IMG/VR virus record: IMGVR_UViG_3300020020_000024
Origin: an uncultured virus (IMG/VR IMGVR_UViG_3300020020_000024)
Taxonomy: Duplodnaviria; Heunggongvirae; Uroviricota; Caudoviricetes
Length of the DNA: 64,000 bases
Reading direction: 5' to 3' (one strand)
How positions within the stretch are numbered: the stretch's first letter is position 1; each line of letters begins with the position of its first letter. Positions 466 to 17,666 of the stretch are shown one piece after another. The translations under genes and the position numbers were made by a program. The notes beneath the pieces were generated by a model. It was not told the origin of the DNA, made no database searches, and saw only the letters and a program-made list of their open reading frames with translations.

Positions 466-1338
466 ATGAAAAGAAACCACAATTCAAAACGTAACCATTT
501 TTTGAACTTCGTAGGTGTTCCACCAAGTTCCGGATACTTAAATTATATGGCTGCGCAAGAAGGCTATTCTCAATCCGGTGATCCATTAGCACTATATCCA
601 AATATGTATCCAAGTGATGACGGCATTAGTGGAACACTTCTTCCAGGTGGTGGAGGTGATGCAATTGGTGCAGGTACTAGTGACCTGGGTTTGGGTAGTG
701 GCGGTATTAAACCGATTGTTCCAGAGCAAGAATTGGGTCTTGGTGCTGGTAATGCTTTGATGGAAAGCGGCGGCGGCACTACTCTTGTAAATACTCCTTA
801 CACTTACAACAATGTTGATAATGCTGATTGCCCTACTATCACTAGGATGATAGGAGAGGTAGAAAATAGCATGATAATGATAAGATTCACGCCGGAAGGT
901 TATGCTGCATGGATGGCATGGCTGCAGTATGCGTATGCAAGAAAAGAAATTATCTGTAATCCGAAATCAAGCCCTGTTGATGAATATTGTCCAAGCGGTA
1001 ATTGTGGTCAGACTACAACTGCCCCTGTTCAAACTTTTGGTGGCGGCGCTAGTGGCGGTGGAGTCATTGGGGCAGGTGTGGGTGATGGTGGTGGCGGTGT
1101 GATCGGTGCAGGTGGGGGTGTTGAAACTCTTACAAGTGGTGGTGCAGCAACTTCGCCGACAACATCTGCTCCAAAGAGTAGCGGCATTCTTGGTGGCCTT
1201 AGTGGACTGTTCGGCGGCGGCGGTGCAGGTGGTGGCAATGGACAAGCACCAACAGGTAAAGGAAAAGATTGGTTCTGGATCGTGTTTGGTGCAGTTTCAA
1301 TCACAGGATTAATAGTACATCTTTCAAAATCTGAATAA
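466..1338 (+). CDS. Gly-rich virion membrane protein with C-terminal TM anchor
   Basis: ORF 397-1338. ATG466 is preferred because it follows the leader AAATCCAATGTC, identical to the capsid gene leader. Gly-rich linkers, a Cys-bounded helical segment and a C-terminal hydrophobic helix. Confidence 0.65.
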   Translation: MKRNHNSKRNHFLNFVGVPPSSGYLNYMAAQEGYSQSGDPLALYPNMYPSDDGISGTLLPGGGGDAIGAGTSDLGLGSGGIKPIVPEQELGLGAGNALMESGGGTTLVNTPYTYNNVDNADCPTITRMIGEVENSMIMIRFTPEGYAAWMAWLQYAYARKEIICNPKSSPVDEYCPSGNCGQTTTAPVQTFGGGASGGGVIGAGVGDGGGGVIGAGGGVETLTSGGAATSPTTSAPKSSGILGGLSGLFGGGGAGGGNGQAPTGKGKDWFWIVFGAVSITGLIVHLSKSE

Positions 1339-1347
1339 AAAATATTT

Positions 1348-1680
1348 ATGGATCAAGTTATTCCAGACGGTGCAGCAACTGCACCACCAGGGCCGATAGG
1401 CGATGTATCGCAGGTTGCAGCACCGGCAGCGCCACCGATACAACAAGCTGCGCCAGTATATACTCCCCCGCCAACTCCAACGCCATCTTTTTTTTCAGGT
1501 ATAAATGTTGGTGATGTGCTTGTAGGTGCTATTGTATTTGGTGCAATGTTTACGATCATCTATTACTACCGAAAAGAAATAAAATATTCAAAAACCGAAA
1601 AGAGTGAGATTCGCCAGCAGCTTGATGAAGTTTCGCAAAATGTTCAAGCAGCACTTGGCCCGAATTATCAAAAGTACTAA
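1348..1680 (+). CDS. Pro-rich single-TM membrane protein
   Basis: Pro/Ala-rich N-terminus, TM VLVGAIVFGAMFTIIYYY, coiled C-terminus. Confidence 0.65.
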   Translation: MDQVIPDGAATAPPGPIGDVSQVAAPAAPPIQQAAPVYTPPPTPTPSFFSGINVGDVLVGAIVFGAMFTIIYYYRKEIKYSKTEKSEIRQQLDEVSQNVQAALGPNYQKY

Positions 1681-1834
1681 AACCAACCTTGTCATTTTTC
1701 ATACGCTAGATAAACCTATACCTGTGATTTCTATCACAGGTATTCCTTTTTATACATACATTTACAATACGCAAATCTCAAGATAACACAGAAACCCTGT
1801 ATATTCATGTACGGGGTTTCAAATTTAAAAGCGT

Positions 1835-2482
1835 ATGCAACCAACGATAAGAGATATTGATAAAATAGTTTTTGGCAATCCATCATTACGGGATTATAAA
1901 ATAATGCAGCAGGAATCATATCTGGACAGGTTAGTTCCTGAATTAAAAATGTTTTCACCTCCAAAAAATTCCTCTACTGCAGCCGTAAAAGAATTAGAAT
2001 CGTTGATCTCTTTTTTAAGTGAAAAAAAGGAAATACAAAATCATCTATTTGATAACGAACTACTGAATTTCATAAAAAATATTTTTGTGTCTGCTGGTGC
2101 TGATCCCGATAATATCAATCAGACAATATTGAATATTGAAAATGATGTGGCCCCTTTGATAACTAAATTGAAATATTTTTTTAATCGTCCTCGTCCATCG
2201 CAGCTGGCATGTTATTATGGACTTCATTTGTTCCCTGACTTTTCTTACTTCACAAATACTCCTTCATATCCATCCGGTCATAGCACACTTACTGCAATCA
2301 CCTGCGAAGTGTTGGGTAATCACTACCCGGAATCATATACTCAGATGAAAGATTTAACGAAAGCCGTTTCTGTTTCCAGGCTTTATATTGGTGCGCATTA
2401 TCCAAGTGATAATGATACGGCAATGATAGTTGCAAAAAAGGTGGTAGCTAATCCAGAGTTTAAATTGCGGTTCAGATTATAA
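1835..2482 (+). CDS. PAP2/acid phosphatase (haloperoxidase superfamily) protein
   Basis: All three PAP2 motifs: KYFFNRPRP, PSYPSGH, SRLYIGAHYPSD. Confidence 0.88.
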   Translation: MQPTIRDIDKIVFGNPSLRDYKIMQQESYLDRLVPELKMFSPPKNSSTAAVKELESLISFLSEKKEIQNHLFDNELLNFIKNIFVSAGADPDNINQTILNIENDVAPLITKLKYFFNRPRPSQLACYYGLHLFPDFSYFTNTPSYPSGHSTLTAITCEVLGNHYPESYTQMKDLTKAVSVSRLYIGAHYPSDNDTAMIVAKKVVANPEFKLRFRL

Positions 2483-2755
2483 ATGCGAATGGCAGTTGAG
2501 AACAACCGCCAGACACATCTAAAAATAAAAAAAATGCATCTAAATATAGTAATCTTTTCTATGATAAAATAAAGAAGGCGACTAAGAATAGCCGCCCGTT
2601 TCCAAAAAAAAATTCCTATGAAAAATCATTCAAATGTAATACTCTATTGTGGTAAACAAAATATCCATTGTATATTGGCATCGGCGTAAAACGTCCGCTT
2701 GATAAGTTAATGATGATTTGGACTTATTAACAGAATTAGTTTAACGCCCTCAGTC

Positions 2756-2787
2756 AGTAGCGGTTTTCTAATCGCTACTCTCTTTTT
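2756..2787 (+). terminator. intrinsic terminator-like hairpin
   Basis: AGTAGCGGTT-ttct-AATCGCTACT followed by ctcttttt. Confidence 0.55.
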
Positions 2788-2820
2788 ACAAACGAATTTT
2801 TTTTTCGTCAACCACCTCGT

Positions 2821-2828
2821 TAAATTTG
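2821..2828 (+). promoter_or_regulatory. Bacteroidota sigma-A -7 element (TAAATTTG)
   Basis: Matches TAnnTTTG, about 35 nt upstream of ORF 2864. Confidence 0.5.
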
Positions 2829-2863
2829 TTTCTGTTGTTTCTGAGCTAACCCCAAAAATTCTA

Positions 2864-3280
2864 ATGTCCTACTCTGCAAACCTGCATGAAAAATTTCTTG
2901 TAGCCGTAGAAACTCTTGGCCGTGAAGCGGTCAATGAGCTTTTCGACAAAGCATTGTCCGGCGACGTGCAGTTTGATAATCCCCTGGTACAAAAGGTTGT
3001 GTTAGCTGTTAGCCAGAAGATGAACATTACCGCATACGAGATCGTCAATGGTAGTGGAAGAAAAAATCACAGGAAGTATGCAATTGGTTTTTGTTGTTTT
3101 TATCTGATTAAGAATTATGAAGTAGATGCAGATGAAGTGGCACAATACTTAAAAAAAGATACATCACTTTGTTATAAGTATCTAAAAGATGTTACCAATC
3201 TTAATGGAAAATTGATAAGCGAAAGAATGTACTATGAAATAAAAATGGAATTTGATGATCTGTTTACCAAATCAAAATAA
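2864..3280 (+). CDS. DnaA C-terminal (domain IV)-like HTH DNA-binding protein
   Basis: AVSQKMNITAYEIVNGSGRK...YAIGFCCFYL...EVAQYLKKDTSLCY resembles the Bac_DnaA_C pattern. Confidence 0.55.
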   Translation: MSYSANLHEKFLVAVETLGREAVNELFDKALSGDVQFDNPLVQKVVLAVSQKMNITAYEIVNGSGRKNHRKYAIGFCCFYLIKNYEVDADEVAQYLKKDTSLCYKYLKDVTNLNGKLISERMYYEIKMEFDDLFTKSK

Positions 3281-3289
3281 AATACTGCA

Positions 3290-4369
3290 ATGAAAGAAAC
3301 TGAAAAATCCAATACTGAGAAAAACCAACAAGCCACTTCTTCTCCATCTGCGGCGGCTGGTTATAATCCAATGGGGGGAGATGTTTTTGTTCCCCCATAC
3401 GCTAAGCCTGAATCGCAATTCAATCAGGGAGAGTTGAACCAGGATATTCCAGAGCCAACTTATACCGCACCACCACGAGAATCGGGTATTCCTAACACAG
3501 AAGAAAAGCAGGAGAAGAAGCCTAAAGAGCCATACAATCCTGATATGGCAGATTTGCCAAAGGGTGAGCAAGATGATGCTGCGGAAAAAATGGCAAGGTA
3601 TCTTGTAGGATTATATGAGCAAATAAAATTGCAGGGTCGTGGTCTTATCAAGATAAGTGAACGCAAGGTCAATAAACTTGTCAATAACGGTGAGATTGAT
3701 CCATCCTTAATTGTTCCGGTTGGTATCGATGAACAAAAAACGCTTGGTGAGTTTTTCAATTTCTATAATGAACAATGTTCGCATCTATTTAAAACAACAG
3801 AAGATTTTAAAGAAGCGATCATCCCACCATTAACAAGAGAACTTGCAAAGCGTGGTCATGGTATTACCGATGCACAATTAATTTTATTCTTGTTGTTTCA
3901 GGATCTAGCATTAGCGATTCAGGAAGGCGTTAAAACAAGAATGGTGTTAACCGACATGCTAAGGTTTGCAAAAGAGCATACGCAAAATTCACGTCAGCCG
4001 GGAGCAGTACATACGCCGCCTCCACCACCCCCGCCGCCACAATCACCAGGGCCGCATCAATCAGAAACAATAGTGCAAGAACCTGCGATGACAGTAGCAG
4101 TTGCTTTACAAGATCAAATCCTTGCTAAGCATATCCCGATGGTTAATTCAGGTGATGGAATGCCTCAGTATGGTGGAGCAAGTAAACTGAGAAAATTAAA
4201 AACTGTTGCCAATCAGGAAAAAGATTCGATAAAGAAAGATAGAAAACGTGCATCAAAGGTTCTTGATGAAACCAGGGTAAGAATGCAATCAACAACGAAT
4301 GTTCCAGATGGTAAAAAAAGAAAAGCCGGCAGACCTGCTGGAAGTAAAAATAAATTTAAAAAACCTTAA
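3290..4369 (+). CDS. hypothetical protein, translationally coupled to packaging ATPase
   Basis: 359 aa with a helical core, poly-Pro tract and basic C-terminus. Its TAA overlaps the ATPase ATG. Confidence 0.7.
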   Translation: MKETEKSNTEKNQQATSSPSAAAGYNPMGGDVFVPPYAKPESQFNQGELNQDIPEPTYTAPPRESGIPNTEEKQEKKPKEPYNPDMADLPKGEQDDAAEKMARYLVGLYEQIKLQGRGLIKISERKVNKLVNNGEIDPSLIVPVGIDEQKTLGEFFNFYNEQCSHLFKTTEDFKEAIIPPLTRELAKRGHGITDAQLILFLLFQDLALAIQEGVKTRMVLTDMLRFAKEHTQNSRQPGAVHTPPPPPPPPQSPGPHQSETIVQEPAMTVAVALQDQILAKHIPMVNSGDGMPQYGGASKLRKLKTVANQEKDSIKKDRKRASKVLDETRVRMQSTTNVPDGKKRKAGRPAGSKNKFKKP

Positions 4370-5187
4370 TGGCACGGTATCCGATACTAATGGCGGTTTG
4401 TGGTAAGCGTCGTATTGGAAAATCGCACAAGACGACAGAGATCATGCGTGATTATGTGCGCAGGGGAAGAAAGGTTTTGATATTTGATGTCACCAATGAA
4501 TATTCGGATAAGTCGAAGTTTCCTGATATAAAAGCAATTGCTTTAAAAGATGTTCCATTATTTGCGGCGCAAACAAGAGCAGAGATCAGGCGTGTGGCCC
4601 CATTCTTTGATGATGGAAGAAAGATGACTCTTGATGATATGGTTAATGTGCTTAACTGGATTCTATCTGTTTACTTCAATGGACTTTTACTTGTGGAAGA
4701 TATTAACAAGTATATTGCAGATACGATGACTAAAGATGTAATGGGTGCTATGTGTACGCTTGCGCATCAGGGTGTTGATCTTATCATGCAATTCCAGTCA
4801 ATAGGTAGATTAACCACAAAGGTCTGGCAAAATATAAATGTGCTTCGTATGCACAAGAATACCGATAGCGTGGATCGTCACAGAGGTAAGTTTGAAGATA
4901 AGTATGAGTATTTAAAAGTTGCTGAGATACTGGTCAACGAAGAATATAGAACAGGTAACGTAAGATTTTTTCTTCATGTAAATTTTGATGATGAAAAAAT
5001 AATTGCTGACTTACCGGAAGAAAAAATTCGCAAAGGTATTGAGCAATACATGAGTGAGAATTATAGAACAGTAACTCAATTATCAGAGCGTAGAGATGGA
5101 AAAGGAAAGAGAATTTATAGTTATGAAGCAGCTTTTAAAACAGAGGTTGATCGCATTTACAATAACTATTTCAGACCAGCGGCTTAA
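4369..5187 (+). CDS. FtsK/HerA-superfamily (A32/P9-like) genome-packaging ATPase
   Basis: N-terminal Walker A GKRRIGKS, Walker B LLLVED, and AHQGVDLIMQFQS (H-x-G...hhhhQ motif). 272 aa, immediately upstream of the putative capsid gene. Confidence 0.8.
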   Translation: MARYPILMAVCGKRRIGKSHKTTEIMRDYVRRGRKVLIFDVTNEYSDKSKFPDIKAIALKDVPLFAAQTRAEIRRVAPFFDDGRKMTLDDMVNVLNWILSVYFNGLLLVEDINKYIADTMTKDVMGAMCTLAHQGVDLIMQFQSIGRLTTKVWQNINVLRMHKNTDSVDRHRGKFEDKYEYLKVAEILVNEEYRTGNVRFFLHVNFDDEKIIADLPEEKIRKGIEQYMSENYRTVTQLSERRDGKGKRIYSYEAAFKTEVDRIYNNYFRPAA

Positions 5188-5311
5188 CGACTGGCAAATA
5201 TATTATTTGCCACTAAGTATAAAGTATCAAAAAGCCCCTTTAAATTTATCCCTGAAATAAAAACCTACGTTGTCTGAGCAACGTAATAACTAACCCAAAA
5301 ATCCATTTATC

Positions 5312-5446
5312 ATGAAAGACGCAAAGACTTATCTCGTTATGCTTGCTGTTGGCACAGCTTCTACACTACTTGGCCTGTGGGCATACGACCAAATCAACAA
5401 AGCAAAAGTTGCTAAACCTGCAACGACTGCGACAGCCGCATCATAA
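5312..5446 (+). CDS. small membrane protein (44 aa; not in ORF track)
   Basis: MKDAKTYLVMLAVGTASTLLGLWAYDQINKAK...; preceded by an AAAATCCATTTATC leader. Confidence 0.7.
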   Translation: MKDAKTYLVMLAVGTASTLLGLWAYDQINKAKVAKPATTATAAS

Positions 5447-5514
5447 AAAAAGATCATTAAAGTTTTTTCGATATAAAATCCAATCTCTTATTTTTTAACC
5501 AAAAATCCAATGTC

Positions 5515-6192
5515 ATGAATAAGGTACAACAGTACATCAATCGTGCAAGAGGTAATTCAAGTAACCAGCACTTGAACTTCGTGAACGATCAAAAAAGTTT
5601 TATCATGCAGCCGAACCTATACGCTAATGGCGCAGGTGCTGGCCCCGCTGCTCCCGTAAAAAAATCAATGCCGTATGCGGTCGTGGTGTCTAGTGCATCA
5701 GGCTCGGCAGTAACTGATTTTGATGTTCTCGGTGCATACGAGTACATCAACAACTCCGGCTTTACTGCTGCGGGTTCACTGGTGATCGGATCAATTACGA
5801 TCAGTTCAGCGATCCCTGGCGTAAGCTACCGTGAGTTGCTGTATCAAACACAGAACAATCCGTTCATGGTGGGTCAGACTTATCTGGCTTGTTCTTCACC
5901 AACAGCCCAAGTGCTGGAAGTGTTCACCATCATCACCAAAGATGCGAACGGTACGCAGGTAAGGATACCTATCGTTCCTGCGGTTGACCCTTATCAGCAA
6001 CAAGATGGTGTGAATGTTGTTGAGCAGGAATATAATATTGATGGTTTCACGAAGCTGACTTTCGCCCGTATTCTTGCGAATGCGGTAGTGACTATCAGGT
6101 TCTACCCATCAGTTAAAATTAATCCTGCCAATCCATTGGCTGGTAAGCCTGACACGGCTGCTTACGGTAACCCTGGTGTTATTCGTCAGTAA
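5515..6192 (+). CDS. putative major capsid protein (beta-rich, single jelly-roll size)
   Basis: Follows the packaging ATPase, is non-membrane and beta-strand rich, is followed by a strong terminator, and has two paralogues in the window. The fold is inferred. Confidence 0.6.
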   Translation: MNKVQQYINRARGNSSNQHLNFVNDQKSFIMQPNLYANGAGAGPAAPVKKSMPYAVVVSSASGSAVTDFDVLGAYEYINNSGFTAAGSLVIGSITISSAIPGVSYRELLYQTQNNPFMVGQTYLACSSPTAQVLEVFTIITKDANGTQVRIPIVPAVDPYQQQDGVNVVEQEYNIDGFTKLTFARILANAVVTIRFYPSVKINPANPLAGKPDTAAYGNPGVIRQ

Positions 6193-6214
6193 TTGAAACT
6201 GAAAACCTCAACAT

Positions 6215-6250
6215 AAAGGCAAGGCGAATTGAATTTGCCTTGCCTTTTTT
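6215..6250 (+). terminator. intrinsic terminator after capsid gene
   Basis: AAAGGCAAGGCGAATT-g-AATTTGCCTTGCCTTT followed by T-run. Confidence 0.85.
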
Positions 6251-6273
6251 AGTTCATCAATAAAATTTCAGCC

Positions 6274-6669
6274 GTGATAACTATTTATGAATATATAACG
6301 AGCAACAACCCCTATGAAGCAAGGGCGTTGCTCAATAAGTACGGCATCAGTTTGCAAGGTGCAACCGATAATGTAGATGTAGCGAATTTGCTTGAACAGG
6401 GTGTTAAGCAAATTGGAGAGCCATTGTTTCTGGACATTGTTTCGCTTCATCCAGATAAGCAGTTGCTGGAAGAAGTTTCAGGGAGGATCATAACTGCACC
6501 GTCATCTGAGCAGGGTGAAAAGAAATGTTCCTGCCAGGAAAAATCGAAATCAATTGCAGATTATGTAAATACTGCATCTTCAAATAATTTCTTAATGCAA
6601 CATGGCCAGATCATTTTAATAAGTGCTTTGGTCATTGGTATTGCAATTGTAGCATCATCAAAATCTTAA
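6274..6669 (+). CDS. virion membrane protein, C-terminal TM
   Basis: NNPYEARALLNKYG N-domain similar to the next gene; C-terminal IILISALVIGIAIV. Confidence 0.7.
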   Translation: MITIYEYITSNNPYEARALLNKYGISLQGATDNVDVANLLEQGVKQIGEPLFLDIVSLHPDKQLLEEVSGRIITAPSSEQGEKKCSCQEKSKSIADYVNTASSNNFLMQHGQIILISALVIGIAIVASSKS

Positions 6670-6674
6670 TCATC

Positions 6675-7334
6675 ATGAACGCAACAAGCATTGCTAAAAT
6701 ACCTGAAAAAAGAATAGATGAAATTCTTGCCCATGTGATGTTCCAAAAGAACTCACAGGATATTCGCACTTTACTTTTTCGTAATGGTGTGCAAGGCGCA
6801 TACGAAATGAAAGATTCGGATGCAAGATACGCTTTCTTAAAAGCGATTGCAGAAAGTACAACTTTCCGCAAAGAAGTTTCCGATTATCTAACCGGAATGG
6901 TAATGGCGCAGACAGAAGAAAGAAAAGGTTTCATCATGCAACCTAGTTATCTGAATCTATTTGATGCTTCTGATCCCACTGACGTTGGTGATGTGCCTAC
7001 CTCAACAACGCCAACCACCACAACAACTGCAACGAAAACTACTTTCTGGCAGAGCCTGGGTGGTGTTGCGACTGGTGATAACCTGAGCAAACTTTTTAAT
7101 GTAGGACTTGATACACTTTCAACAAAATTGCAGTCTGATATTAATAAAGATTCTGAGGAAAGGGCGTTACAGGCGAAGATGCTAGATCTTCAAATTGCGC
7201 AACAACAAGCGGCGGCTGCGGCTGGTGGTGGAACGAGTAAGGGTTTGAGTGCCGGTGCGTGGATCGGGATCATTGCTGGTGTCGGATTACTTGGATTCGG
7301 CGTTTGGTATTTCGCAATAAGAAAGAAAAAATAA
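6675..7334 (+). CDS. virion membrane protein, Thr-rich linker, C-terminal TM + RKKK
   Basis: TTTTT linker, AWIGIIAGVGLLGFGVWYF-IRKKK. Confidence 0.75.
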   Translation: MNATSIAKIPEKRIDEILAHVMFQKNSQDIRTLLFRNGVQGAYEMKDSDARYAFLKAIAESTTFRKEVSDYLTGMVMAQTEERKGFIMQPSYLNLFDASDPTDVGDVPTSTTPTTTTTATKTTFWQSLGGVATGDNLSKLFNVGLDTLSTKLQSDINKDSEERALQAKMLDLQIAQQQAAAAAGGGTSKGLSAGAWIGIIAGVGLLGFGVWYFAIRKKK

Positions 7335-7340
7335 TTCCGT

Positions 7341-7517
7341 ATGGAAGAAACAATAAAGAGCAGCATTTGGCAAGCATCACTAGGCACTATCGGTGCTGTT
7401 GGTGCTGTTATATGGGCTGCTAATTCTGGTCACAAAGGAAAATTTTGGTGGTTCATTGGTGGTGGAATGATTGGTGGTGCAATTGGAATGATCCTGGACT
7501 CGGCCAATAAAAAATAA
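7341..7517 (+). CDS. small glycine-zipper membrane protein (58 aa; not in ORF track)
   Basis: MEETIKSSIWQASLGTIGAVGAVIWAA...WWFIGGGMIGGAIGMIL; two hydrophobic segments. Confidence 0.7.
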   Translation: MEETIKSSIWQASLGTIGAVGAVIWAANSGHKGKFWWFIGGGMIGGAIGMILDSANKK

Positions 7518-7522
7518 GTGCT

Positions 7523-7753
7523 ATGGCAGAAACAACAGAAGGAGGCAGCATGATGAACAAGATCGCTTCTATCGGCACATCGGGGCCAGAAGATGAGGCG
7601 ACACATAAAAACAAAGCAACGATAAGCGGTGCTGCTGTTGGTGGACTGTTCGGAATGTATTATGGTTATTCAAAAGAAAAAAACATGCTGGTTTGTGGGA
7701 TCGTGGGAAGTGTGATCGGTGCAGTAGTAGCCAGGGTATTTACATCTGTGTGA
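7523..7753 (+). CDS. small glycine-zipper membrane protein
   Basis: GAAVGGLFG and GIVGSVIG GxxxG helices. Confidence 0.7.
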   Translation: MAETTEGGSMMNKIASIGTSGPEDEATHKNKATISGAAVGGLFGMYYGYSKEKNMLVCGIVGSVIGAVVARVFTSV

Positions 7754-7756
7754 TAT

Positions 7757-8065
7757 ATGACAGCAAATGAAATGCATAAACAGTATTTGAAAGATGGCGG
7801 TCAGCTTGGGTTCAAAGAGTGGATTGGTCGTGAGAAGAAAAAAGACTTTATGAACTTCGACGGACAGGCCACAGTTCCAATTAATCAACCTCTCACGGAT
7901 AGTATTTACAGAACGCTCGATCAATTGCACAGAACATCCGGATATCAGGACGAGCTTTCAAATGAATACTGGCTCGGAATGAAGAAAACAAATCTCTTGA
8001 TAGGCACATCAATAGTTGTGATTGCAATCATCGCTGTTGTAGCTTATAAAAAAGGTAAAAAATGA
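7757..8065 (+). CDS. virion membrane protein, C-terminal TM + KKGKK
   Basis: FMNFDG motif; C-terminal hydrophobic helix with basic tail. Confidence 0.7.
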   Translation: MTANEMHKQYLKDGGQLGFKEWIGREKKKDFMNFDGQATVPINQPLTDSIYRTLDQLHRTSGYQDELSNEYWLGMKKTNLLIGTSIVVIAIIAVVAYKKGKK

Positions 8066-8187
8066 ACGAAGCAAAATTTGAAGTAACAGGTGCTTTAGCG
8101 GTTTTATTTATAGGCGCAGTAGGTGTGATTACACTTGTGGGCGTTAGCCTTACAATTGCTTTAATTGGTAAATCATTAAAAAAGTAA
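8062..8187 (+). CDS. small hydrophobic protein (41 aa; not in ORF track)
   Basis: MNEAKFEVTGALAVLFIGAVGVITLVGVSLTIALIGKSLKK; ATGA overlap with the previous stop. Confidence 0.65.
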   Translation: MNEAKFEVTGALAVLFIGAVGVITLVGVSLTIALIGKSLKK

Positions 8188-8190
8188 CAA

Positions 8191-8442
8191 ATGAAAACAG
8201 TATTTATTTTAGTTGCTGGTGCTGCTGCCGGATACCTTATTTGGGATTACTGTAATAAAAATAAAAAACCTTGTCCTTGTCAGCATAAAGAGGAAGAAGT
8301 AACAACAGCAATAGTTGCTATTGCGCCGAAACAAGAAATTGTTTCTGATAGTGTTGTTGAAGTATATGATGCAAGCAGGAATGCAACGTTGCCAACGCCA
8401 CAAAGACTGATTGTTGGTGCGGGATCAACTGAATGGAATTAA
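8191..8442 (+). CDS. small N-anchored membrane protein
   Basis: N-terminal hydrophobic helix, KKPCPC. Confidence 0.65.
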   Translation: MKTVFILVAGAAAGYLIWDYCNKNKKPCPCQHKEEEVTTAIVAIAPKQEIVSDSVVEVYDASRNATLPTPQRLIVGAGSTEWN

Positions 8443-8465
8443 GAAAAAAGAAGATTGTATAATTT

Positions 8466-9257
8466 ATGAGATATGTTATTGGAACAAGATACCGTTCATG
8501 TGCAATCGTCATACCTATTGAAGCAAATAAGGTATGTAACATTTTTATAGAGGTTCATGATTCAAAAGAACCTCATTGTTATTTGACAAAACGTTTCAGA
8601 ATGTTCAACCAGGGTGAGAAAAGAAACATGGTTGTACAGATGCCATTAACTGGTAACGCTGTTGTTTGTTCGATCTTTGACAACCCTGATGATAAGGATG
8701 GTAATTCGCCTAATTTTAGCTGCGGAAAAATAAAATTAATGTCATTGCCGTCACAGCTTGATGTCGTTGATATGACTAAAAACCACATGAAAGAATTTAT
8801 TCGTTTCTGTGGAAGATTTTGTTTTAATGCAGGATCGCTGCCAACATTTGAAGATAAATTTTATGTCAGCGATGCAAAACATTTTCGTATTAAATATGTA
8901 AATACGATCATGGGCGACAGCCAGGATGAACAATTGACTCCTGCAAGAATTTCAAAAGTTACAAAAGTGATCGAAGCAGCGAAGTCAAAGTTTATCAACA
9001 TGACAGTTCCAGGACGCTTTTGCATCCTGAGTCATGAATATTGTCACTTGTTCGTTAATGAAGATATGCACGACGAGTTGGAGGCTGATCTCAATGGACT
9101 CTCAATATACCTGGGCCTCGGTTTTCCGAGAATAGAAGCGAAGGAAATATTTTATAGCACCTTTTATCAGTCACCAACTGAGGATAACTTAGTAAGGTTG
9201 CAGCATATTGAGAAGTTCATGGACAGCTATGAAAACATTGAACAGAAATATTTATGA
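8466..9257 (+). CDS. HExxH zinc metalloprotease (putative virion maturation protease)
   Basis: LSHEYCH followed by ELEAD (third-ligand ExxAD); located inside the structural operon. Confidence 0.7.
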   Translation: MRYVIGTRYRSCAIVIPIEANKVCNIFIEVHDSKEPHCYLTKRFRMFNQGEKRNMVVQMPLTGNAVVCSIFDNPDDKDGNSPNFSCGKIKLMSLPSQLDVVDMTKNHMKEFIRFCGRFCFNAGSLPTFEDKFYVSDAKHFRIKYVNTIMGDSQDEQLTPARISKVTKVIEAAKSKFINMTVPGRFCILSHEYCHLFVNEDMHDELEADLNGLSIYLGLGFPRIEAKEIFYSTFYQSPTEDNLVRLQHIEKFMDSYENIEQKYL

Positions 9258-10472: not shown

Positions 10473-10481
10473 TCCAGGCAG

Positions 10482-10997
10482 ATGAAAAACATTTATTTCA
10501 ATTTTATAAATGAACCCCAGGAAGGGTCGAATCTTAATTCAGCCTACCTGAATCTGTTTGGTATTTTGGAAGGTGATACAAGAGAAGCAAAAGAAACAAG
10601 ACTCGTTCTTGACGAGGTTCGCCAGTCAATGGGGCCATATAGCACTTGTGCAGAAGCGGATCAGAAAACTATTTGGCTTTCAAATGCGCTTGCAGACGTC
10701 AATAGAAAAATTACATCAGGGGAAACAGACGCTGTTGGTAAGAGGTATAAAACAGCTTTTGAAGTACTCTTGACAGAAGTAAGCTCTTACATTACCACCA
10801 ACTGTTTGGGCAAGCAAGCCACAGGTGCAGGTACAACAGATACTGCGCAAACTGTTATGAGCACTGGAGTAACTCAAAGTACTTCAACAGTCGCTCCTGC
10901 ACCAACAAAAATAAATTATATACTGGTCGCTGGTATTTCATTTTTAGTGCTTGTCGTGGGAGGGGTTATTATGTATAAGTTGGCAAAAAAGAAATAA
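10482..10997 (+). CDS. virion membrane protein (Cys-bounded helical hairpin, Thr linker, C-terminal TM + KKK)
   Basis: Paralogous to 16807-17313 (GETDAVGKRY vs GTTDRVGLRY). Confidence 0.75.
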   Translation: MKNIYFNFINEPQEGSNLNSAYLNLFGILEGDTREAKETRLVLDEVRQSMGPYSTCAEADQKTIWLSNALADVNRKITSGETDAVGKRYKTAFEVLLTEVSSYITTNCLGKQATGAGTTDTAQTVMSTGVTQSTSTVAPAPTKINYILVAGISFLVLVVGGVIMYKLAKKK

Positions 10998-11482: not shown

Positions 11483-11487
11483 AACGT

Positions 11488-11880: not shown

Positions 11881-11920
11881 GAATTAAGTTTTTTACTTCC
11901 GGCAATTTAAAATCCTTTAT

Positions 11921-12475
11921 ATGAAAAAGACCAGCGTTATACTTATTGGAGTCGGTGTAGCGGGAGCAATAGCAACTATTGCTTATCTTCTTTTAAGAAA
12001 GAAACCAGCACCTGCAACAACTACGAATAATTCAACTACGACAAATAGTAGTTCTGTAACGACCGAGACTGGTGCAGGTTCAACAACTCCTGGAACTACT
12101 GCTCCGACAACCCCGGTGGTAACTGTTCCGGCATCAACACCAACTGCGCAAACTGTGATCAATCCAACATCTGACACGATTGCGACACCTGTAATAACAA
12201 ATCCAGGTGTGAAAGTTTATGCAGACAAGAATTATGTAAATATGCAGTCGTATCTGCAACCAGGGTATTATGCCAACTCTGACCATTTGAGCAGAAATGG
12301 AATCGCAAACGATTCTATCAGTTCTCTACAATTAGACCCCGGAATCAGAATGGTTATTTATGAGGGCAGAGATCGTGGCGGCAGATCACTTGAAGTAACA
12401 AAGAGTGTTCCTGATCTCAGTATATATGGCTTTGATAATATGATTACGAGTATGGACATAGTAAGAGTTCTGTAA
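11921..12475 (+). CDS. membrane-anchored Thr-rich stalk with beta/gamma-crystallin (Greek key) domain
   Basis: VKVYADKNY...NDSISSLQL and MVIYEGRDRGG...DNMITSMDI are two Greek-key motifs. Confidence 0.75.
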   Translation: MKKTSVILIGVGVAGAIATIAYLLLRKKPAPATTTNNSTTTNSSSVTTETGAGSTTPGTTAPTTPVVTVPASTPTAQTVINPTSDTIATPVITNPGVKVYADKNYVNMQSYLQPGYYANSDHLSRNGIANDSISSLQLDPGIRMVIYEGRDRGGRSLEVTKSVPDLSIYGFDNMITSMDIVRVL

Positions 12476-12518
12476 AAATATTAGTGCCTAATAAGCACAT
12501 CACATAAATTAAAGTATC

Positions 12519-12794: not shown

Positions 12795-12811
12795 TCGTTA
12801 AAATTTATAAA

Positions 12812-14365
12812 ATGAGTTTTAATCAAAATAGTACGTTTGGTTTTGGTGGTGGTGCTGGTGGTGGTAGTGGCCCAGGTGGACTGTCAGATGCCAACAATGG
12901 TCTTTCCGTTAGTGGTGGGGCTATTGCTGTGTTAGGACAGGATATTGGTGAAGTTGGTAATCCAGGCCAATTATTAAGTGACAGGGAAATTCCTTTAAAT
13001 GCTTTTAATCTTCATATTGGAGTAATGGATACTGCCATATGGATTGAAGAAGTAAACCAGGAAATTTATATCGGAGACCCATTCGGAGTTGGAAGCGGTG
13101 CTTTACTTGAGTTGCGTACTGGCTCAGGCAGATTACAATATTACGACAACAACGGAACGTATTTAGATATTGATCCATTTTCGAGCAGGTACAGGTTTGG
13201 AGATTTTGATATTGCAAATAATGGAACACAGTTAGATATTGATGATGCTAATATATTGGTAGCGTTGGGTGATGTTGCCAGCCAGTATAGTAATTTTCAA
13301 CTACTCATTGACATCATTAATGAAGATATTTTTTTAGGAGACCCAAATTTTATTGGGCCAGTTGTTGAAATTACAGGTTTCGGAGGAGGTAGTAATCCGT
13401 TATTTGAAGCATATGTACCAAGCAATGCAGACGCCGACAGCTATATTGATTTAAGTATGTTTCATAATGGAGATGTTGTGTTTTTGTTGGATATGCAGGG
13501 ATTATCGAATCGCTATCAACTGAATTGGAGATTGGATACAAACACCGGAGATTTCTTTTCAATTGAGCGCCGTGACGGAGGTGTTTTTAGAAATCTATTT
13601 ATTGATTTTACAAATGATCTTTATGAATTTGGAGATATAAATGCACAAACTAACGGCACGCACCTTGCCATTGACGATGCGGATATGAGATTTACAATGA
13701 TTGCAACAACCTCATTTTTAAATATGCTTGACCTTAATGGATCAACAAGGTTGTACCGGATGGGTGAATTTGACAACGGTTCTGATTTTGCTTTCGTAAT
13801 GGATGCAGATAATCAAGTTTCACAAATAAAATTAGGCAACAACTATTTAGATATTAATGTACCCGCATTACGATATCAGTTTGGGGATGTTGATCAAGTA
13901 AATAATAATAGTCGGATAGATATTAACGGATCGCCTGGTAGTGCTGTTATTGCACTAGTTATCGCAGGAAACCCAATGTTTGAAGGGTTTGAAAATGGCG
14001 TTCGTGCTGAGATGGGTGATGTAGGTAATGTTGTAAATGGTACAAAGGTCAGAGTTTCTGTTAATGGCGGGATTGATACGGTCTACCAAAATCAAACTCG
14101 TGGTTTTCTACTGGACATGATTAGTTCTATTCATCAATTCGGAATATCTAATATCGGTAATCAACCTATATTAACATCGAATGGTAGTTCATTACGGATG
14201 TACACAGAACAATTTGATCAATTAATAGGAACATCAGGTACGGCATATGCCAATGGAGCAGCCGCTCAGCTAGGCACATTGACAAATGCGCCAGCTGCTG
14301 GCAATCCTACGAAGTGGCTTAAAATAAACGATAATGGCACAATAAGGCATATACCAGCTTGGTAA
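12812..14365 (+). CDS. spike/fibre protein with internal Y/F-x-(F/M/L)-G-D repeats
   Basis: Gly hinge; repeated YRFGD/YEFGD/YQFGD and NGTxLxIDD units; C-terminal TLTNAPAAGNPTKW...IPAW. Confidence 0.65.
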   Translation: MSFNQNSTFGFGGGAGGGSGPGGLSDANNGLSVSGGAIAVLGQDIGEVGNPGQLLSDREIPLNAFNLHIGVMDTAIWIEEVNQEIYIGDPFGVGSGALLELRTGSGRLQYYDNNGTYLDIDPFSSRYRFGDFDIANNGTQLDIDDANILVALGDVASQYSNFQLLIDIINEDIFLGDPNFIGPVVEITGFGGGSNPLFEAYVPSNADADSYIDLSMFHNGDVVFLLDMQGLSNRYQLNWRLDTNTGDFFSIERRDGGVFRNLFIDFTNDLYEFGDINAQTNGTHLAIDDADMRFTMIATTSFLNMLDLNGSTRLYRMGEFDNGSDFAFVMDADNQVSQIKLGNNYLDINVPALRYQFGDVDQVNNNSRIDINGSPGSAVIALVIAGNPMFEGFENGVRAEMGDVGNVVNGTKVRVSVNGGIDTVYQNQTRGFLLDMISSIHQFGISNIGNQPILTSNGSSLRMYTEQFDQLIGTSGTAYANGAAAQLGTLTNAPAAGNPTKWLKINDNGTIRHIPAW

Positions 14366-14405
14366 AAATTAGTCACTTATTTTTTAATCATATAAAAACA
14401 CGATC

Positions 14406-14633
14406 ATGGACTTAAAAGTTAAAGTCAGCAGTCTTAAAGCAGTTCCGAAGAACGCAAGAATTCCGAATCCACAGAACCCCAATCAACCAATTGTTATGCA
14501 AAAAGACATTTTGGTGATTGAGTGCGTATCTGCCGAATCGGATGAAATTGCGGCTCGGTTGTCAGTAGATGCTGAGAAGTATCCTGGTGTTAAGGATTTA
14601 AAAATCTCTCAGGAAATTACAATCACGATATAA
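14406..14633 (+). CDS. hypothetical protein (possible fibre chaperone)
   Basis: Follows the fibre gene and precedes a terminator. Confidence 0.55.
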   Translation: MDLKVKVSSLKAVPKNARIPNPQNPNQPIVMQKDILVIECVSAESDEIAARLSVDAEKYPGVKDLKISQEITITI

Positions 14634-14643
14634 AAGTCGTGCG

Positions 14644-14678
14644 GTAAGTCATAGTGATAGCATTATGACTTACTTTTT
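14644..14678 (+). terminator. intrinsic terminator
   Basis: GTAAGTCATAGTG-atag-CATTATGACTTAC-TTTTT. Confidence 0.8.
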
Positions 14679-14781
14679 ATTAAACCGATTCGTTACGAAA
14701 TCCACATATAGTAATAACCAATGTAACTACTATTAGATACAAAAGTTATTTTATATTTTGCAACGAAATCCAATATTTTTT

Positions 14782-15204
14782 ATGAGCCACTATTTATTGC
14801 AGTCAATTCTTTTGCAGGGTTTACTTGGCGACATTGAGCCTCTTTTCTTTTTATGGTGTGCATTTTGGGCATGTATAGGAGTTATTATAACACTACTTGC
14901 CGGAACAATGGTTCGTGACCCGGAAAGCAAATGCAGCCCCAGAAAATGGTCTTTTTTATATCTTATAAGAGACAATTACAAAAGGATCATTTGGAATGCA
15001 GTTCTAATCTTCATAGCAATAAGATTTTATGAAGATATTACTGGATGGGCATTAACTCATTGGTCAGCTTTATGTATTGGTCTGTCTTTTGATACAATAC
15101 TGATGATCATAAAACAGAAATCAAGCTGGCTAGATCCATCAAAAAAAGCAATTTCTAAACAACCACCGCAACCCTCTGATAATGGAAAATCTTCTAACGA
15201 ATAA
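14782..15204 (+). CDS. multi-TM membrane protein (holin-like)
   Basis: About three hydrophobic helices and a charged C-tail. ATG14782 follows the AAATCCAATATT leader. Confidence 0.55.
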   Translation: MSHYLLQSILLQGLLGDIEPLFFLWCAFWACIGVIITLLAGTMVRDPESKCSPRKWSFLYLIRDNYKRIIWNAVLIFIAIRFYEDITGWALTHWSALCIGLSFDTILMIIKQKSSWLDPSKKAISKQPPQPSDNGKSSNE

Positions 15205-15216
15205 AATTGAGGTAGC

Positions 15217-15516
15217 ATGGAAAGGAAATTAATAAACAGTCAAGTTATGCCAGACGCAGACAAGTACACTCTTGAAATCATAGGTGCAGTAATAGGATTA
15301 ATGTGCTACTTCTTATTTACAGATGGTAGTGGATTTTTCATGATCCATATTGATTGGATCGCCTACATATTCTCGGCAATAGAAGTAGGATTTGTAACAT
15401 TCTTTTCCGGTTTCCTCACATTTCTGGGTAAGAAATTCGGCGAAAAATGGTATAAAAAGCATTTTGAAAAAGGCACAAAAGGCATGAACCAGGGCCGTGA
15501 GCCAACCGATCTGTAA
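15217..15516 (+). CDS. two-TM membrane protein (holin/antiholin-like)
   Basis: Two hydrophobic helices and a basic C-tail. Confidence 0.5.
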   Translation: MERKLINSQVMPDADKYTLEIIGAVIGLMCYFLFTDGSGFFMIHIDWIAYIFSAIEVGFVTFFSGFLTFLGKKFGEKWYKKHFEKGTKGMNQGREPTDL

Positions 15517-15624
15517 GAGGAAATTAATAGTTTGAGTTACAGAACTCAAATGCTTATATTAGCGACTGATATAAGATACTGACCAGCAATGGTTGGTATC
15601 TGAACCAATAAATCCAATATTACC

Positions 15625-16329
15625 ATGAGTCCAAAAACCAAAAGGATATTATTTATCTTGGCCCCACTTGTTTTAGGCGGTGGCGTCATTTTGTATTTGA
15701 ATCGTAAAAAGAAAACTCCAGTTAATGATAGAACAGATGCTGGTGATACAGATTCAAAACAACTTCAACAAACGTTGACATCATCAGCAAATTTATTCCC
15801 ATTAAAAAAAGGTAGTCGTGGTGATCTTGTAGCTGCGTTGCAAAATGCACTTATTGCCGCTTATGGTAAGGCGTTGCTTCCTAAGTATGGTGCTGATGCT
15901 GATTGGGGAACAGAAACCGATACGGCTGTTCAATCAAAATTGGGCATTACTCAAATTGCTGATAAAACTCAATTCAATTCGATCATCACAAGTCTTAAAA
16001 CAAGTGCTGCGGCGCAGCAGATTACAAGTGCTGCAATCAGCAAAGCTCAGCAGATTTTTAATAACTGGACAAATAATGCAGCGTTAAAATTAATTGTTAC
16101 TGCACCACTCAGTGCAGCAGTAGTAACGATTGATTATAACAAGACCGCTTCTTCTACTGGTAAGTTTGAAAATGTTGCCGCTAATACGCCGCTTCCAAGA
16201 GAGCATTACCAGCCTTATCTTGTTTTGTCTAACGGTAATCTTGTGGTTAAGCATATAACTACTTACTGGATCGGTGATCCGGATGTAACGTATCTCGTAT
16301 TCAGACCTGACACAACAACCTTGATTTAA
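15625..16329 (+). CDS. membrane-anchored peptidoglycan-binding (PG_binding_1) protein
   Basis: N-terminal TM; FPLKKGSRGDLVAALQNAL...GADADWGTETDTAV. Confidence 0.8.
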   Translation: MSPKTKRILFILAPLVLGGGVILYLNRKKKTPVNDRTDAGDTDSKQLQQTLTSSANLFPLKKGSRGDLVAALQNALIAAYGKALLPKYGADADWGTETDTAVQSKLGITQIADKTQFNSIITSLKTSAAAQQITSAAISKAQQIFNNWTNNAALKLIVTAPLSAAVVTIDYNKTASSTGKFENVAANTPLPREHYQPYLVLSNGNLVVKHITTYWIGDPDVTYLVFRPDTTTLI

Positions 16330-16339
16330 AAAGCCTTGT

Positions 16340-16519
16340 ATGAAAAAAAAGTACGGAGTTATTATGGTCGTGGTAGGTGCTTTGATGGTGAGTGCAGGTT
16401 TATATCTTTTACTCAAACCAAAAAAGAAGCAAGAGGATGATTTGGCGGTAAACAATACTACTACAAATAATACATTAGTAAATAGTCTTAGTGAAGAACA
16501 ATTACTTCACGGAGATTAA
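16340..16519 (+). CDS. small N-anchored membrane protein (59 aa; not in ORF track)
   Basis: MKKKYGVIMVVVGALMVSAGLYLLLKPKKK... Confidence 0.7.
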   Translation: MKKKYGVIMVVVGALMVSAGLYLLLKPKKKQEDDLAVNNTTTNNTLVNSLSEEQLLHGD

Positions 16520-16537
16520 AATACAAATCCAATATTA

Positions 16538-16804
16538 ATGAATAAGAACACTAAAACATTTTTGCTCGTACTAGGTGTTGCGGCTGTTGGATGGATGGGA
16601 TGGCAAGCCTGGAAAAAGAAGCAACAAAGCGATGCGGTTGAGGCCGCTAAGAAAGAAGAATTGAAAGCTGGTAGTACAGCCCCGGCAACATCAACTGGTG
16701 CGCAGGTTGTAAAGGATGTTTCAGAAGGTGTAATGATCCCAACGGATCAAGTGACAAGTTATGCTACTCCTATTGAGCAGGATACTATTTCAAATGTGAT
16801 GTAA
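16538..16804 (+). CDS. N-anchored membrane protein
   Basis: TM followed by WKKK; AAATCCAATATTA leader. Confidence 0.7.
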   Translation: MNKNTKTFLLVLGVAAVGWMGWQAWKKKQQSDAVEAAKKEELKAGSTAPATSTGAQVVKDVSEGVMIPTDQVTSYATPIEQDTISNVM

Positions 16805-16806
16805 CA

Positions 16807-17313
16807 ATGAAAGAGCAAGCAAATTATATCGGTGCCGGTAGCATGGATCAGTATTTTAATATACTGCCCATAATTACCGCTATTGCTACATCGCCAGACG
16901 AGGAAGCAGAACGTTTGAAAGCATATAATGAAATAGCTGCAAAGTATCCGATCACGTCTAAGATTGATTGTTTGACGATCCGGGCCGTAATGCAAGACAT
17001 GGATGGAAATATTGAGGACATTGAAAAGCAAAGGGTTTTAGGAACTACTGACCGGGTAGGACTTCGTTACATACTAGCATATCAAAGAAGGAAATCCGAA
17101 TTTGAAAGTATATGGAATCAGATGCAATGTGCCGATAAACTAGCACAAGCTAAAGACGAACTTTTTCTCGATCAGCAATACGATCAACTTGAAAAGGTAC
17201 AGAAGTTAGGACAGGATGCAGGTAAGGCTGCAACGTATGTTATTTGGGGAATGCTTGGTCTTGTTGTTGTAGCAACCGGAATTTTCATGTATAAGAAATT
17301 AAAAAAGAAGTAA
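16807..17313 (+). CDS. virion membrane protein, C-terminal TM + KKLKKK
   Basis: Paralogue of 10482-10997. Confidence 0.75.
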   Translation: MKEQANYIGAGSMDQYFNILPIITAIATSPDEEAERLKAYNEIAAKYPITSKIDCLTIRAVMQDMDGNIEDIEKQRVLGTTDRVGLRYILAYQRRKSEFESIWNQMQCADKLAQAKDELFLDQQYDQLEKVQKLGQDAGKAATYVIWGMLGLVVVATGIFMYKKLKKK

Positions 17314-17666
17314 TGATTGATCACTCGGCCGAAATGTTAAATGCAATTGATCCTGTTTCTGCTGTTACGCAGATTGGTACTGCTACGGCTAATACCATTG
17401 CAGGAATCAGTGACATGAACAAGCGCCGGGAGTTCGACCAGGCACTTCAATCATTAACCAACAGCCAGCAGCAAGAGTTAAATGAAAAACTACTTTCTGC
17501 AAATACGCAGAATGATAGACTGCGTATCCTTTCGGAATCAATGACCAATTACCTGATAGCAAACCAGGCCAAAGGAACAACAAGCAATATTTTTTTATAC
17601 GCAATAGCAGGAGTTCTTGCTATTGGTTTATTTGTAGGTGTTATTTATTTAAGTAAGAGCAAATGA
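17313..17666 (+). CDS. virion membrane protein, coiled coil + C-terminal TM
   Basis: Gln-rich coil, FLYAIAGVLAIGLFVGVIYL. Confidence 0.7.
   Translation: MIDHSAEMLNAIDPVSAVTQIGTATANTIAGISDMNKRREFDQALQSLTNSQQQELNEKLLSANTQNDRLRILSESMTNYLIANQAKGTTSNIFLYAIAGVLAIGLFVGVIYLSKSK

Follow-up and report, generated by a model that had tools for sequence, protein, structure and literature searches.

An asparagine-centred motif shared across a large phage family by its likely capsid protein and many small membrane proteins, with a conserved zincin as candidate reader

Why should a likely capsid protein and a series of small membrane proteins of one virus carry the same short peptide, and what would read it? 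The question is raised by a 64,000-nt stretch of DNA from an uncultured virus (IMG/VR record IMGVR_UViG_3300020020_000024), which was analysed whole and is called the window here. An earlier note, made from its letters alone, had pointed to a recurrent aromatic-x-Asn-hydrophobic peptide in presumed virion proteins, encoded near an HExxH protein, and had proposed a common cleavage or assembly-docking signal. We find that a short, Asn-centred motif is common to the likely capsid protein and to many small membrane proteins of a large phage family, and that it probably marks its carriers for one common assembly factor. It is very likely a functional short linear motif, read by such a factor where the virion membrane faces the capsid. 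Cleavage at the motif by the conserved zincin candidate of the same gene module is our tentative first choice for how it is used, at somewhat less than an even chance.

The window consists of two arms, a plus-strand arm from position 1 to ∼21.3 kb and then a minus-strand arm. A simple longest-ORF rule defined the open reading frames (ORFs), hydropathy alone the anchors, and tripeptide overlap served to filter redundancy. On this basis the plus-strand module holds 35 tightly packed ORFs (6,253 aa) and is rich in small proteins with a single hydrophobic anchor, and the rest of the window holds 64 ORFs (12,393 aa). All 11 motif strings of the earlier note, its FIMQP pair, and the HEYCH and ELEAD strings of the HExxH protein lie where it had placed them (Table 1); the first carrier does contain its two strings, the start given for it, 466, being an internal ATG of its ORF and not the beginning. 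In the module, the pattern [FYH][LFM]N[FYLI] occurs 10 times versus 1.35 expected, a count reached in 0 of 500 shuffles, and in the rest of the window once versus 3.05 expected. The broader pattern of the earlier note occurs 47 times versus 25.0 expected in the module (again 0/500 shuffles) and 45 times versus 47.8 in the rest, and the shuffle counts thus bear out an enrichment in the structural module relative to other ORFs. The window patterns were chosen after seeing the data. Because they had been fitted in this way, all 20 residues were tried as a partial control at the centre of an aromatic-hydrophobic-centre-hydrophobic frame; Asn comes first in the module (14 versus 4.5 expected, z 4.3), and elsewhere in the window at least six other residues rank above it. 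Exact tripeptide counts within the window do not flag the degenerate motif; in the related locus L002, the tripeptide ADG ranks third (9 versus 1.68 expected). FFNFYN in ORF 3290-4369 was considered as another copy and is taken as chance, as it is not kept by the orthologues.

Independent counts were obtained from 144 related loci, of which 70 are at least 15 kb in length (the long loci). Of the loci with context, L065 alone belongs to the window's own lineage, its capsid protein being 66% identical, and all other loci are at most 50% identical. A test pattern, [FYWM]-x-N-[AFVMLYI]-x-G, was set on the capsid and 6274 families (families are named by the ORF start in the window) and was then applied to the remaining clusters, after removal of redundant proteins. 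Genes downstream of that for the capsid protein gave 138 occurrences versus 30.9 expected (z 19.9), found in 122 proteins (of 946) and 41 clusters (of 274); those upstream gave 38 versus 23.4 (z 3.1). Replacement of Asn by Gln, Asp, Ser or Thr, or reversal of the motif, gave downstream z values between −0.4 and 2.1, the reversed motif (of equal composition) occurring 32 times versus 30.8 expected. The z values are inflated by within-cluster homology, and the spread over 41 clusters together with the flat controls are the stronger points.

As judged from the aligned sequences, the family-wide consensus is [FY]-x-N-[A/F/V/L/M]-x-G, and that of the window lineage is aromatic-[L/M/F]-N-hydrophobic. 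The logo of 201 non-capsid copies reads [ED]-[GE]-[YF]-x-N-[A>F>V,L,M]-[S/D/G/T]-G with polar flanks, the residue after Asn being Ala in 91 copies and Phe in 35, and a minority of copies have Gly in place of Asn (FLGADG, FFGANG). The window lineage uses aromatic-[L/M/F]-N-[F/L/Y/I], with Gly three residues on in some copies, and distant relatives use aromatic-x-N-A-x-G. The capsid arm and the other carriers change form jointly between lineages, and such a joint shift in many proteins argues for one common, co-evolving reader. The motif was also compared with an N-glycosylation sequon (N-x-S/T), which was set aside, Ser or Thr standing two residues after Asn in only 68 of the 201 copies.

Conservation is clearest in the N-terminal arm of the capsid protein, where a fixed order is kept: an amphipathic helix, the motif, a second copy, a variable Gly/Ala/Pro linker and the first beta strand. 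The arm motif is HLNFVDD in the window lineage and F-[SA]-N-A-D-G-F-I-D-D in others, and the second copy is LYANGAG or FFxA[DN]G. An aromatic-x-N-hydrophobic string lies in residues 11-45 of 102 of 120 capsid homologues, the 18 misses being mostly near variants (e.g. TLNFVG) or truncated entries, and conservation extends beyond the hexamer to about 30 residues of the arm. An EF-hand-like calcium loop was considered for NADGFIDDD and rejected: positions 1 and 12 misfit and, by eye, only the capsid arm has the acidic tail. In the 6274 family, the string YVNTAS, which had been listed as a weak case, aligns with a column block [FY]-[LMI]-N-[AFV]-x-G that is kept in nearly all members, and [FY]-x-[NG]-hydrophobic-x-[GA] is present in 124 of 127 members within 55 residues before the anchor. 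The outcome that would have counted against the proposal, a lack of enrichment or of conservation, is thus not what the counts give.

Conservation in the remaining carriers is uneven, so the expectation that homologues keep the motif holds for the capsid arm and the 6274 family, holds in part for the 7757 family and fails for the positions in the 6675 and 16807 proteins. Orthologues of 7757-8065 have FVNFEG, FNNADG, FYNADG, FQNFDG or FENADG in place of FMNFDG, some lineages being without the motif and two alternative positions being used. The YLNL position of the 6675 protein is not kept in L001 and L002, and many members of this family hold motif copies at about residues 75-110. The L002 orthologue of the 16807 protein does not keep the position and has YSYADG, at residue 42, instead. 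No orthologues of 397-1338 or 10482-10997 were found among the 144 loci, and 17313-17666 has matches in only 2. The second element that had been noticed in the capsid and 6675 proteins, FIMQP, is confirmed in the more general form F[IV]xQP: the two genomes that represent the lineage both have it in the arm of the capsid protein and in the 6675 family. It sits just before the Asn motif (L065: 3722-4399 and 4806-5537), and in the L065 orthologue of the 6675 protein it occurs twice, as SFIRQP and DFVDQP.

The motif falls, according to the models, in disordered or linker segments, and its sites lie between folded domains and anchors or at extreme N-termini, in agreement with the placement near N-termini or domain junctions that had been described. 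Three families share the order folded N-terminal domain, motif, variable linker, anchor; a motif starts within the first 12 residues in 23 of 194 carriers and is repeated within 25 residues in 10 of 194. By crude hydropathy, the window has the motif in 7 of 8 single C-terminally anchored versus 1 of 6 single N-terminally anchored proteins. In the relatives, the strict motif occurs in 116 of 561 C-anchored, 23 of 354 N-anchored and 48 of 875 proteins without a transmembrane (TM) segment. The bias to C-anchored proteins is therefore upheld, whereas the supposed absence from N-anchored proteins is not, as one N-anchored family in the relatives carries the motif. In C-anchored proteins, the motif is N-terminal of the anchor (119 of 201 instances). 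In the motif-bearing N-anchored family, Lys is more frequent after the TM segment than before it, and by the positive-inside rule the motif part of this family should also be cytoplasmic. All copies are accordingly predicted to lie on the cytoplasmic, capsid-facing side of the membrane. The N-anchored family itself consists of 60-150-aa proteins, present in several copies in L008, L009, L012, L015, L035, L044 and L058 (e.g. L008 14292-14531), with tandem paralogues per genome; a fixed NSEGF[FY][GN]A[SN]G lies ∼10 residues past the anchor and is followed by a Cys-rich CxxC...DGS.Y domain.

The protein that carries the best-conserved copies is most likely a capsid protein. It is the product of the best-conserved gene of the module, with 502 homologues (clusters in public data), and K180 as well as several acidic residues are invariant in it. 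Its AlphaFold2 (AF2) model has a beta core (residues 54-200) in the form of a sandwich of at least eight strands, whereas the arm (residues 15-51) has a predicted local distance difference test score (pLDDT) below 50. Fold matches are weak, with Z no higher than 6 (PR772 chain O 5.5, PBCV-1 5.4, phiCjT23 5.1, FLiP 5.0 and PM2 4.9), and Foldseek placed TNF/C1q-like knobs and PRD1 P5 on top at E >0.001. The fold searches against the PDB (Foldseek), VIA wide and BFVD gave weak, generic jelly-roll/TNF-like rows, and ESM Atlas gave nothing usable. A terminator-like hairpin lies directly 3′ of the gene, and an armless paralogue is encoded at 18499-18921, which matches the capsid proteins of L001 and L002 at 26–28% identity over ∼140 residues (E 5e-9) and may form the vertices as a penton protein or act as a second capsid protein. 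The conservation, the modelled sandwich, the weak jelly-roll matches, the 3′ hairpin and the paralogue are the grounds on which the capsid reading is accepted.

The HExxH protein, which the earlier note had taken for a protease, stands as a credible zinc peptidase with a predicted activity: it is a core gene product with an invariant catalytic motif and a modelled M48-like fold. Its gene was detected in 68 of the 70 long loci by BLASTP and in L102 by tblastn (E 1.3e-52), giving 69 of 70; the sole long locus without it, L107, stops 6.1 kb past the start of the capsid gene. In relatives, it lies 2.5–8.1 kb downstream of the capsid gene. The family (∼260 aa) comprises 1,819 clusters at 90% identity and 846 at 50%, and is confined to this virus family. 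H190, E191, H194, E204 and D208 are invariant among 43 aligned homologues, and HExxH...ExxxD is intact in 91 of 91; the gap between HExxH and the downstream Glu is only 9 residues, E204, the putative third zinc ligand, and D208 forming the ExxxD. The AF2 model (pLDDT 94) has two domains. Residues 109-257 resemble the M48 peptidase BepA (6sar_A; Z 8.6, root-mean-square deviation (rmsd) 4.2, 120 aligned), where a Z below ∼13 can reflect a common helical arrangement, and the putative Zn peptidase 3c37_B (Z 6.7). In ESM Atlas, Peptidase_M48 is named for minorities of neighbouring clusters, and PF01435 cluster rows have TM-scores of 0.58–0.59. The first domain, residues 1-100, is a CBM-like sandwich (7kwc; Z 8.9, rmsd 2.3, 88 aligned), and weak matches of this part (8466-8765) to viral turret or cement jelly rolls were also observed (4ind Z 6.7, 3j4u Z 6.1); the sandwich may hold the enzyme in the shell or be the part that binds the motif. 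Foldseek against the PDB returned no row at E ≤0.001 for the protein, the N-terminal sandwich alone being matched, and no link to a named peptidase family was found among the best 150 full-length members of the 846 clusters. Peptidase_C48 and Peptidase_S78 were found in 0 of 5 near-complete relatives (77–102 kb, CheckV 94–100% complete).

This zincin is the first-choice reader of the motif. It would cut at or beside the invariant Asn and so shorten the capsid arm and release domains from their anchors as the particle matures. Gluzincins usually favour a hydrophobic residue at P1′, a preference that a cut at the Asn/hydrophobic bond would suit because it would place the hydrophobic residue there, and M48 enzymes typically act on membrane or membrane-associated proteins. 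The protein is without a signal peptide or TM segment and would thus share the compartment of the motifs. Several points weigh against cleavage by the zincin. Processing of the family's proteins is a prediction, the M48 fold match is modest, and the protein has no match in Pfam (E up to 0.01, PF01435 included) or NCBIfam and no relevant PDB sequence match (E up to 10). In the 23 carriers with a copy in their first 12 residues, cutting would remove few residues. The conservation of the whole capsid arm, together with the F[IV]xQP element that it has in common with the 6675 family, fits an extended binding interface at least equally well, and the zincin may have its role in entry, lysis or host takeover instead. 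The capsid and zincin genes are also separated by terminator-like hairpins (6215-6247); the two are in one co-oriented module, which is the safer wording, as these hairpins make the single operon of the earlier note doubtful.

Among the rival explanations, an uncleaved docking or sorting signal comes first, and we regard it as nearly as likely as cleavage. Here the motif would bind a pocket on the assembled capsid or another coat-side factor, drawing tail-anchored proteins into the virus membrane patch and tethering the membrane to the shell, with the capsid arm fitting a neighbour's pocket and the zincin doing an unrelated job. All copies are predicted to face the capsid, both in C-anchored proteins, where they precede the anchor, and in the N-anchored family with its Lys after the TM segment. 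Tandem copies and copies at extreme N-termini would be expected of multivalent hooks, the capsid arm is conserved well beyond the motif, the 6675 family copies a longer stretch of that arm (F[IV]xQP plus the motif) in the window lineage, the arm is disordered in the monomer model as befits a segment that orders upon binding, and viruses of this kind must select membrane cargo. Docking, however, leaves a strictly conserved mid-module peptidase without a role. Tandem copies do not discriminate either, since the cleaved propeptides of phage SPN3US, in which one prohead protease (gp245) cuts many head proteins at AXE, also hold several copies of their motif (PMC10052503), and tandem copies are hence no argument against cleavage. 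Of the signal originally proposed, a selected motif, enriched ∼4.5-fold in 41 unrelated clusters and with a likely common reader, stands; its two versions, cleavage and docking, come out near-equal. They are also compatible, as carriers can dock first and be clipped later. In a rather unlikely combination of the two, the capsid jelly-roll would read motif hooks on tail-anchored proteins, picking internal-membrane cargo and stapling the membrane to the shell, the capsid arm would use the same pocket to join capsomers, and the zincin would then clip the hooks, turning the particle from an assembly state to an infectious, metastable one.

The other explanations are weaker. The reader may be something else, such as a chaperone of the host that inserts or targets tail-anchored proteins, a modifying enzyme, or a protease of host origin; we hold this to be improbable, for although the bias to tail-anchored proteins and the several glycosyltransferases encoded elsewhere in the window would suit it, the best-conserved copies are those of the anchorless capsid protein, and the joint lineage shift of the motif form favours a virus-encoded, co-evolving reader. 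More improbable still is chemistry of the Asn itself, which, once docked in the assembled shell, would either break the chain at its own position or become joined to a Lys of the capsid through an isopeptide bond. The first has parallels in the coat proteins of nodavirus, tetravirus, picornavirus and reovirus, asparagine peptide lyases that are cut by attack of an Asn on its own bond, and the second has one in HK97. Asn is the defining residue of the motif by the central-residue scan and the substituted controls, the Ala or Phe that often follows it is reminiscent of the N|A and N|F sites at which nodavirus and tetravirus coats are cut, and an invariant Lys (K180) and acidic residues are available in the capsid protein. 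Known Asn lyases, however, cut in the folded context of their own protein, whereas the motif here lies in many unrelated disordered segments, and the chemistry would be impossible at the copies with Gly for Asn. Least credible is that the motif is a by-product of Asn-, Gly- and aromatic-rich linkers. The definition of patterns after the data had been seen and the silence of the exact tripeptide counts in the window would speak for chance, but the reversed motif is unenriched, substitution of the Asn by Gln, Asp, Ser or Thr removes the excess, and conservation is seen at the level of alignment columns in two families; the enrichment controls and conservation counts bring this explanation close to refuted.

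Cleavage by the zincin would have its nearest precedent in phage prohead maturation. T4 gp21 cleaves at LxE, and in T4-like and phiKZ-like phages, as here, one short consensus is found in the major capsid protein and many particle proteins, with sites mostly N-terminal and sometimes in several copies, and with the protease gene in the structural module. Prohead proteases, by contrast, are serine enzymes of tailed phages that cut after Glu, whereas the candidate here is an M48-like zinc enzyme with a beta sandwich and the key residue is Asn; the carriers here are mostly membrane-anchored, the virus has no detectable HK97 capsid, portal or terminase, and its cleavage is predicted. Adenoviruses, poxviruses and asfarviruses process many virion proteins at a consensus of the Gly-Gly or Ala-Gly type and offer a second parallel, with jelly-roll capsids, membranes in the pox- and asfarviruses, and one consensus for many proteins. 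Their enzymes, however, are cysteine proteases of the Ulp1/adenain type from viruses of eukaryotes, and the corresponding Peptidase_C48 was found in 0 of 5 relatives here. With M48 enzymes (BepA, HtpX, Ste24) and minimal gluzincins, the zincin has in common the HExxH helix and a downstream Glu in an ExxxD-like motif; it differs from M48 in having no sequence-level match, a 9-residue HExxH-Glu gap, a soluble form and an N-terminal CBM-like sandwich. The asparagine peptide lyase coats are alike in that Asn is followed by a small or hydrophobic residue in an icosahedral coat protein, but their sites are single and lie within the folded coat, in contrast with the dozens of unrelated disordered segments and the tolerated Gly found here. 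For docking, the working analogy is with vesicle coats, which read cargo signals such as NPxY and YxxPhi: a short aromatic/Asn peptide in a cytoplasmic part could likewise be read by a membrane-shaping coat, although there is no homology, the virus is a bacterial one and the binding is hypothetical.

How membrane phages choose the proteins of their internal membrane and fasten that membrane to the capsid is largely unknown, and the motif offers a directly testable sequence rule. The rule is specific, in that it marks a capsid arm and dozens of small membrane proteins, and widespread, public data containing at least 502 clusters of the capsid protein and 1,819 of the zincin. Should the motif prove to be cut, consensus-site maturation would gain a new catalytic class and a new type of virus; should it serve for docking, it would be a viral analogue of vesicle-coat cargo selection. 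If the combination of the two is true, it would be the first defined sorting signal for the membrane of a prokaryotic virus and the first metallopeptidase maturation in such a virus. Under cleavage and docking alike, it provides a handle for annotating featureless virion proteins in metagenomes.

The virus family to which the window belongs, with genomes of 77–133 kb, appears to be undescribed and is probably tailless and membrane-containing. Its conserved core consists of PAP2, a 330–420-aa protein, a P-loop ATPase, the small jelly-roll protein, a tail-anchored protein and the zincin (Table 1). Among isolated phages, there was no blastn match to 4369-9257 and no tblastn match to the capsid protein (50,697 phage records), and a full-text literature search, at the level of listings and abstract starts, gave no account of such a virus group, which is not proof that none has been published. 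HK97-type capsid, portal and terminase, searched as three Pfam families (PF05065, PF03237 and PF04860), were found in 0 of 5 near-complete relatives, and neither these nor tail genes were found by Pfam or PHROGs in the window, which is about half of a 132,863-nt contig. In comparison with phages of the PRD1, PM2 and Sphaerolipovirus kind, the absence of HK97-type genes is accompanied by weak jelly-roll and HerA/DUF87 matches. The small ATPase beside the capsid gene, a candidate for packaging, matches only weakly and only around its Walker A site (DUF87 E 0.0063, below the cut-off; HerA 8xau E 0.0084). The host is uncertain; 7 bins of metagenome-assembled genomes with relatives are named Sediminibacterium, Flavobacteriales, Ignavibacteria, Chlamydiales, Chlamydiae, Gammaproteobacteria and Opitutia.

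Table 1. Motif strings, their carriers and other features of the plus-strand module, with the occurrence of core genes in the long loci
Feature	Position (nt)	Strand	Details
CHAP-domain end	2-400	+	
Gly-rich C-terminally anchored protein	397..1338	+	two motif copies (FLNFVG, YLNYMA)
FLNFVG	499-516	+	ORF 397-1338
YLNYMA	535-552	+	ORF 397-1338
PAP2-superfamily phosphatase	1835-2482	+	Pfam E 2.6e-11; core gene, 68/70 long loci
3290 protein	3290-4369	+	core gene, 69/70 long loci
P-loop ATPase, candidate packaging ATPase beside capsid gene	4369..5187	+	core gene, 70/70 long loci
Putative major capsid protein, 225 aa	5515..6192	+	N-terminal helix, disordered motif-bearing arm, jelly-roll-like beta sandwich; core gene, 70/70 long loci
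HLNFVN	5569-5586	+	ORF 5515-6192
FIMQP	5599-5613	+	ORF 5515-6192
YANGAG	5620-5637	+	ORF 5515-6192
Terminator-like hairpin	6215-6247	+	15-pair stem then T run; directly 3′ of capsid gene
Core tail-anchored protein	6274..6669	+	YVNTAS just before anchor; family in 68/70 long loci
YVNTAS	6562-6579	+	ORF 6274-6669
Tail-anchored protein	6675..7334	+	FIMQP and YLNLFD
FIMQP	6930-6944	+	ORF 6675-7334
YLNLFD	6948-6965	+	ORF 6675-7334
Tail-anchored protein	7757..8065	+	FMNFDG
FMNFDG	7847-7864	+	ORF 7757-8065
Two-domain HExxH protein	8466..9257	+	N-terminal beta sandwich, residues 1-100; C-terminal domain modelled as M48-like zincin
HEYCH	9033-9047	+	ORF 8466-9257
ELEAD	9075-9089	+	ORF 8466-9257
Tail-anchored protein	10482..10997	+	two N-terminal copies (YFNFIN, YLNLFG)
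YFNFIN	10494-10511	+	ORF 10482-10997
YLNLFG	10545-10562	+	ORF 10482-10997
Tail-anchored protein	16807..17313	+	YFNILP
YFNILP	16852-16869	+	ORF 16807-17313
Tail-anchored protein	17313..17666	+	MLNAID; matches in only 2 loci
MLNAID	17334-17351	+	ORF 17313-17666
Glucosaminidase	17971-18498	+	
Capsid jelly-roll paralogue, 140 aa	18499..18921	+	without N-terminal arm; BLASTP

Other genes of the plus-strand module also merit description. The PAP2 protein, a lipid-phosphate phosphatase inside a virion module, suggests remodelling of the virus membrane. The core protein 3290-4369 has a proline-rich middle, a basic, AT-hook-like C-terminal tail and no family match; it may act as a scaffold, associate with the genome or serve as a terminal protein. 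Two large beta-rich proteins are encoded further downstream. That of 12812-14365 is Gly-rich at the N-terminus and repetitive internally, and its L065 counterpart has Asn-rich repeats at the end, features that recall a spike or fibre; that of 18918-20162 is propeller-like, with about eight 'MTSPDG.NWT' repeats and a weak match to BamI_Bacteroidota (E 1.2e-4, far below the cut-off). The N-anchored product of 11921-12475 combines a Thr/Pro-rich linker with a beta/gamma-crystallin domain at its C-terminus (Pfam E 7e-8), an uncommon feature for a phage virion module.

Among the products of the minus-strand arm are DNA methyltransferases, ThyX, a sliding-clamp-like protein, a sigma factor and a HerA-like ATPase. 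The window has at least four genes for DNA methyltransferases of the C5 and N6/N4 types (30079-31821, 36426-37925, 51286-52050 and 61465-63984), which together with ThyX, DUF1599 and MazG-like proteins point to a heavy outlay on DNA modification and nucleotide metabolism. The HerA/DUF87-type ATPase at 22930-24765 on the minus strand (611 aa, Pfam E 5.2e-9) is the second and larger of the two ATPases, either of which may package the DNA, and both it and the small capsid-adjacent one match the same PHROG (2666, 'terminase large subunit').

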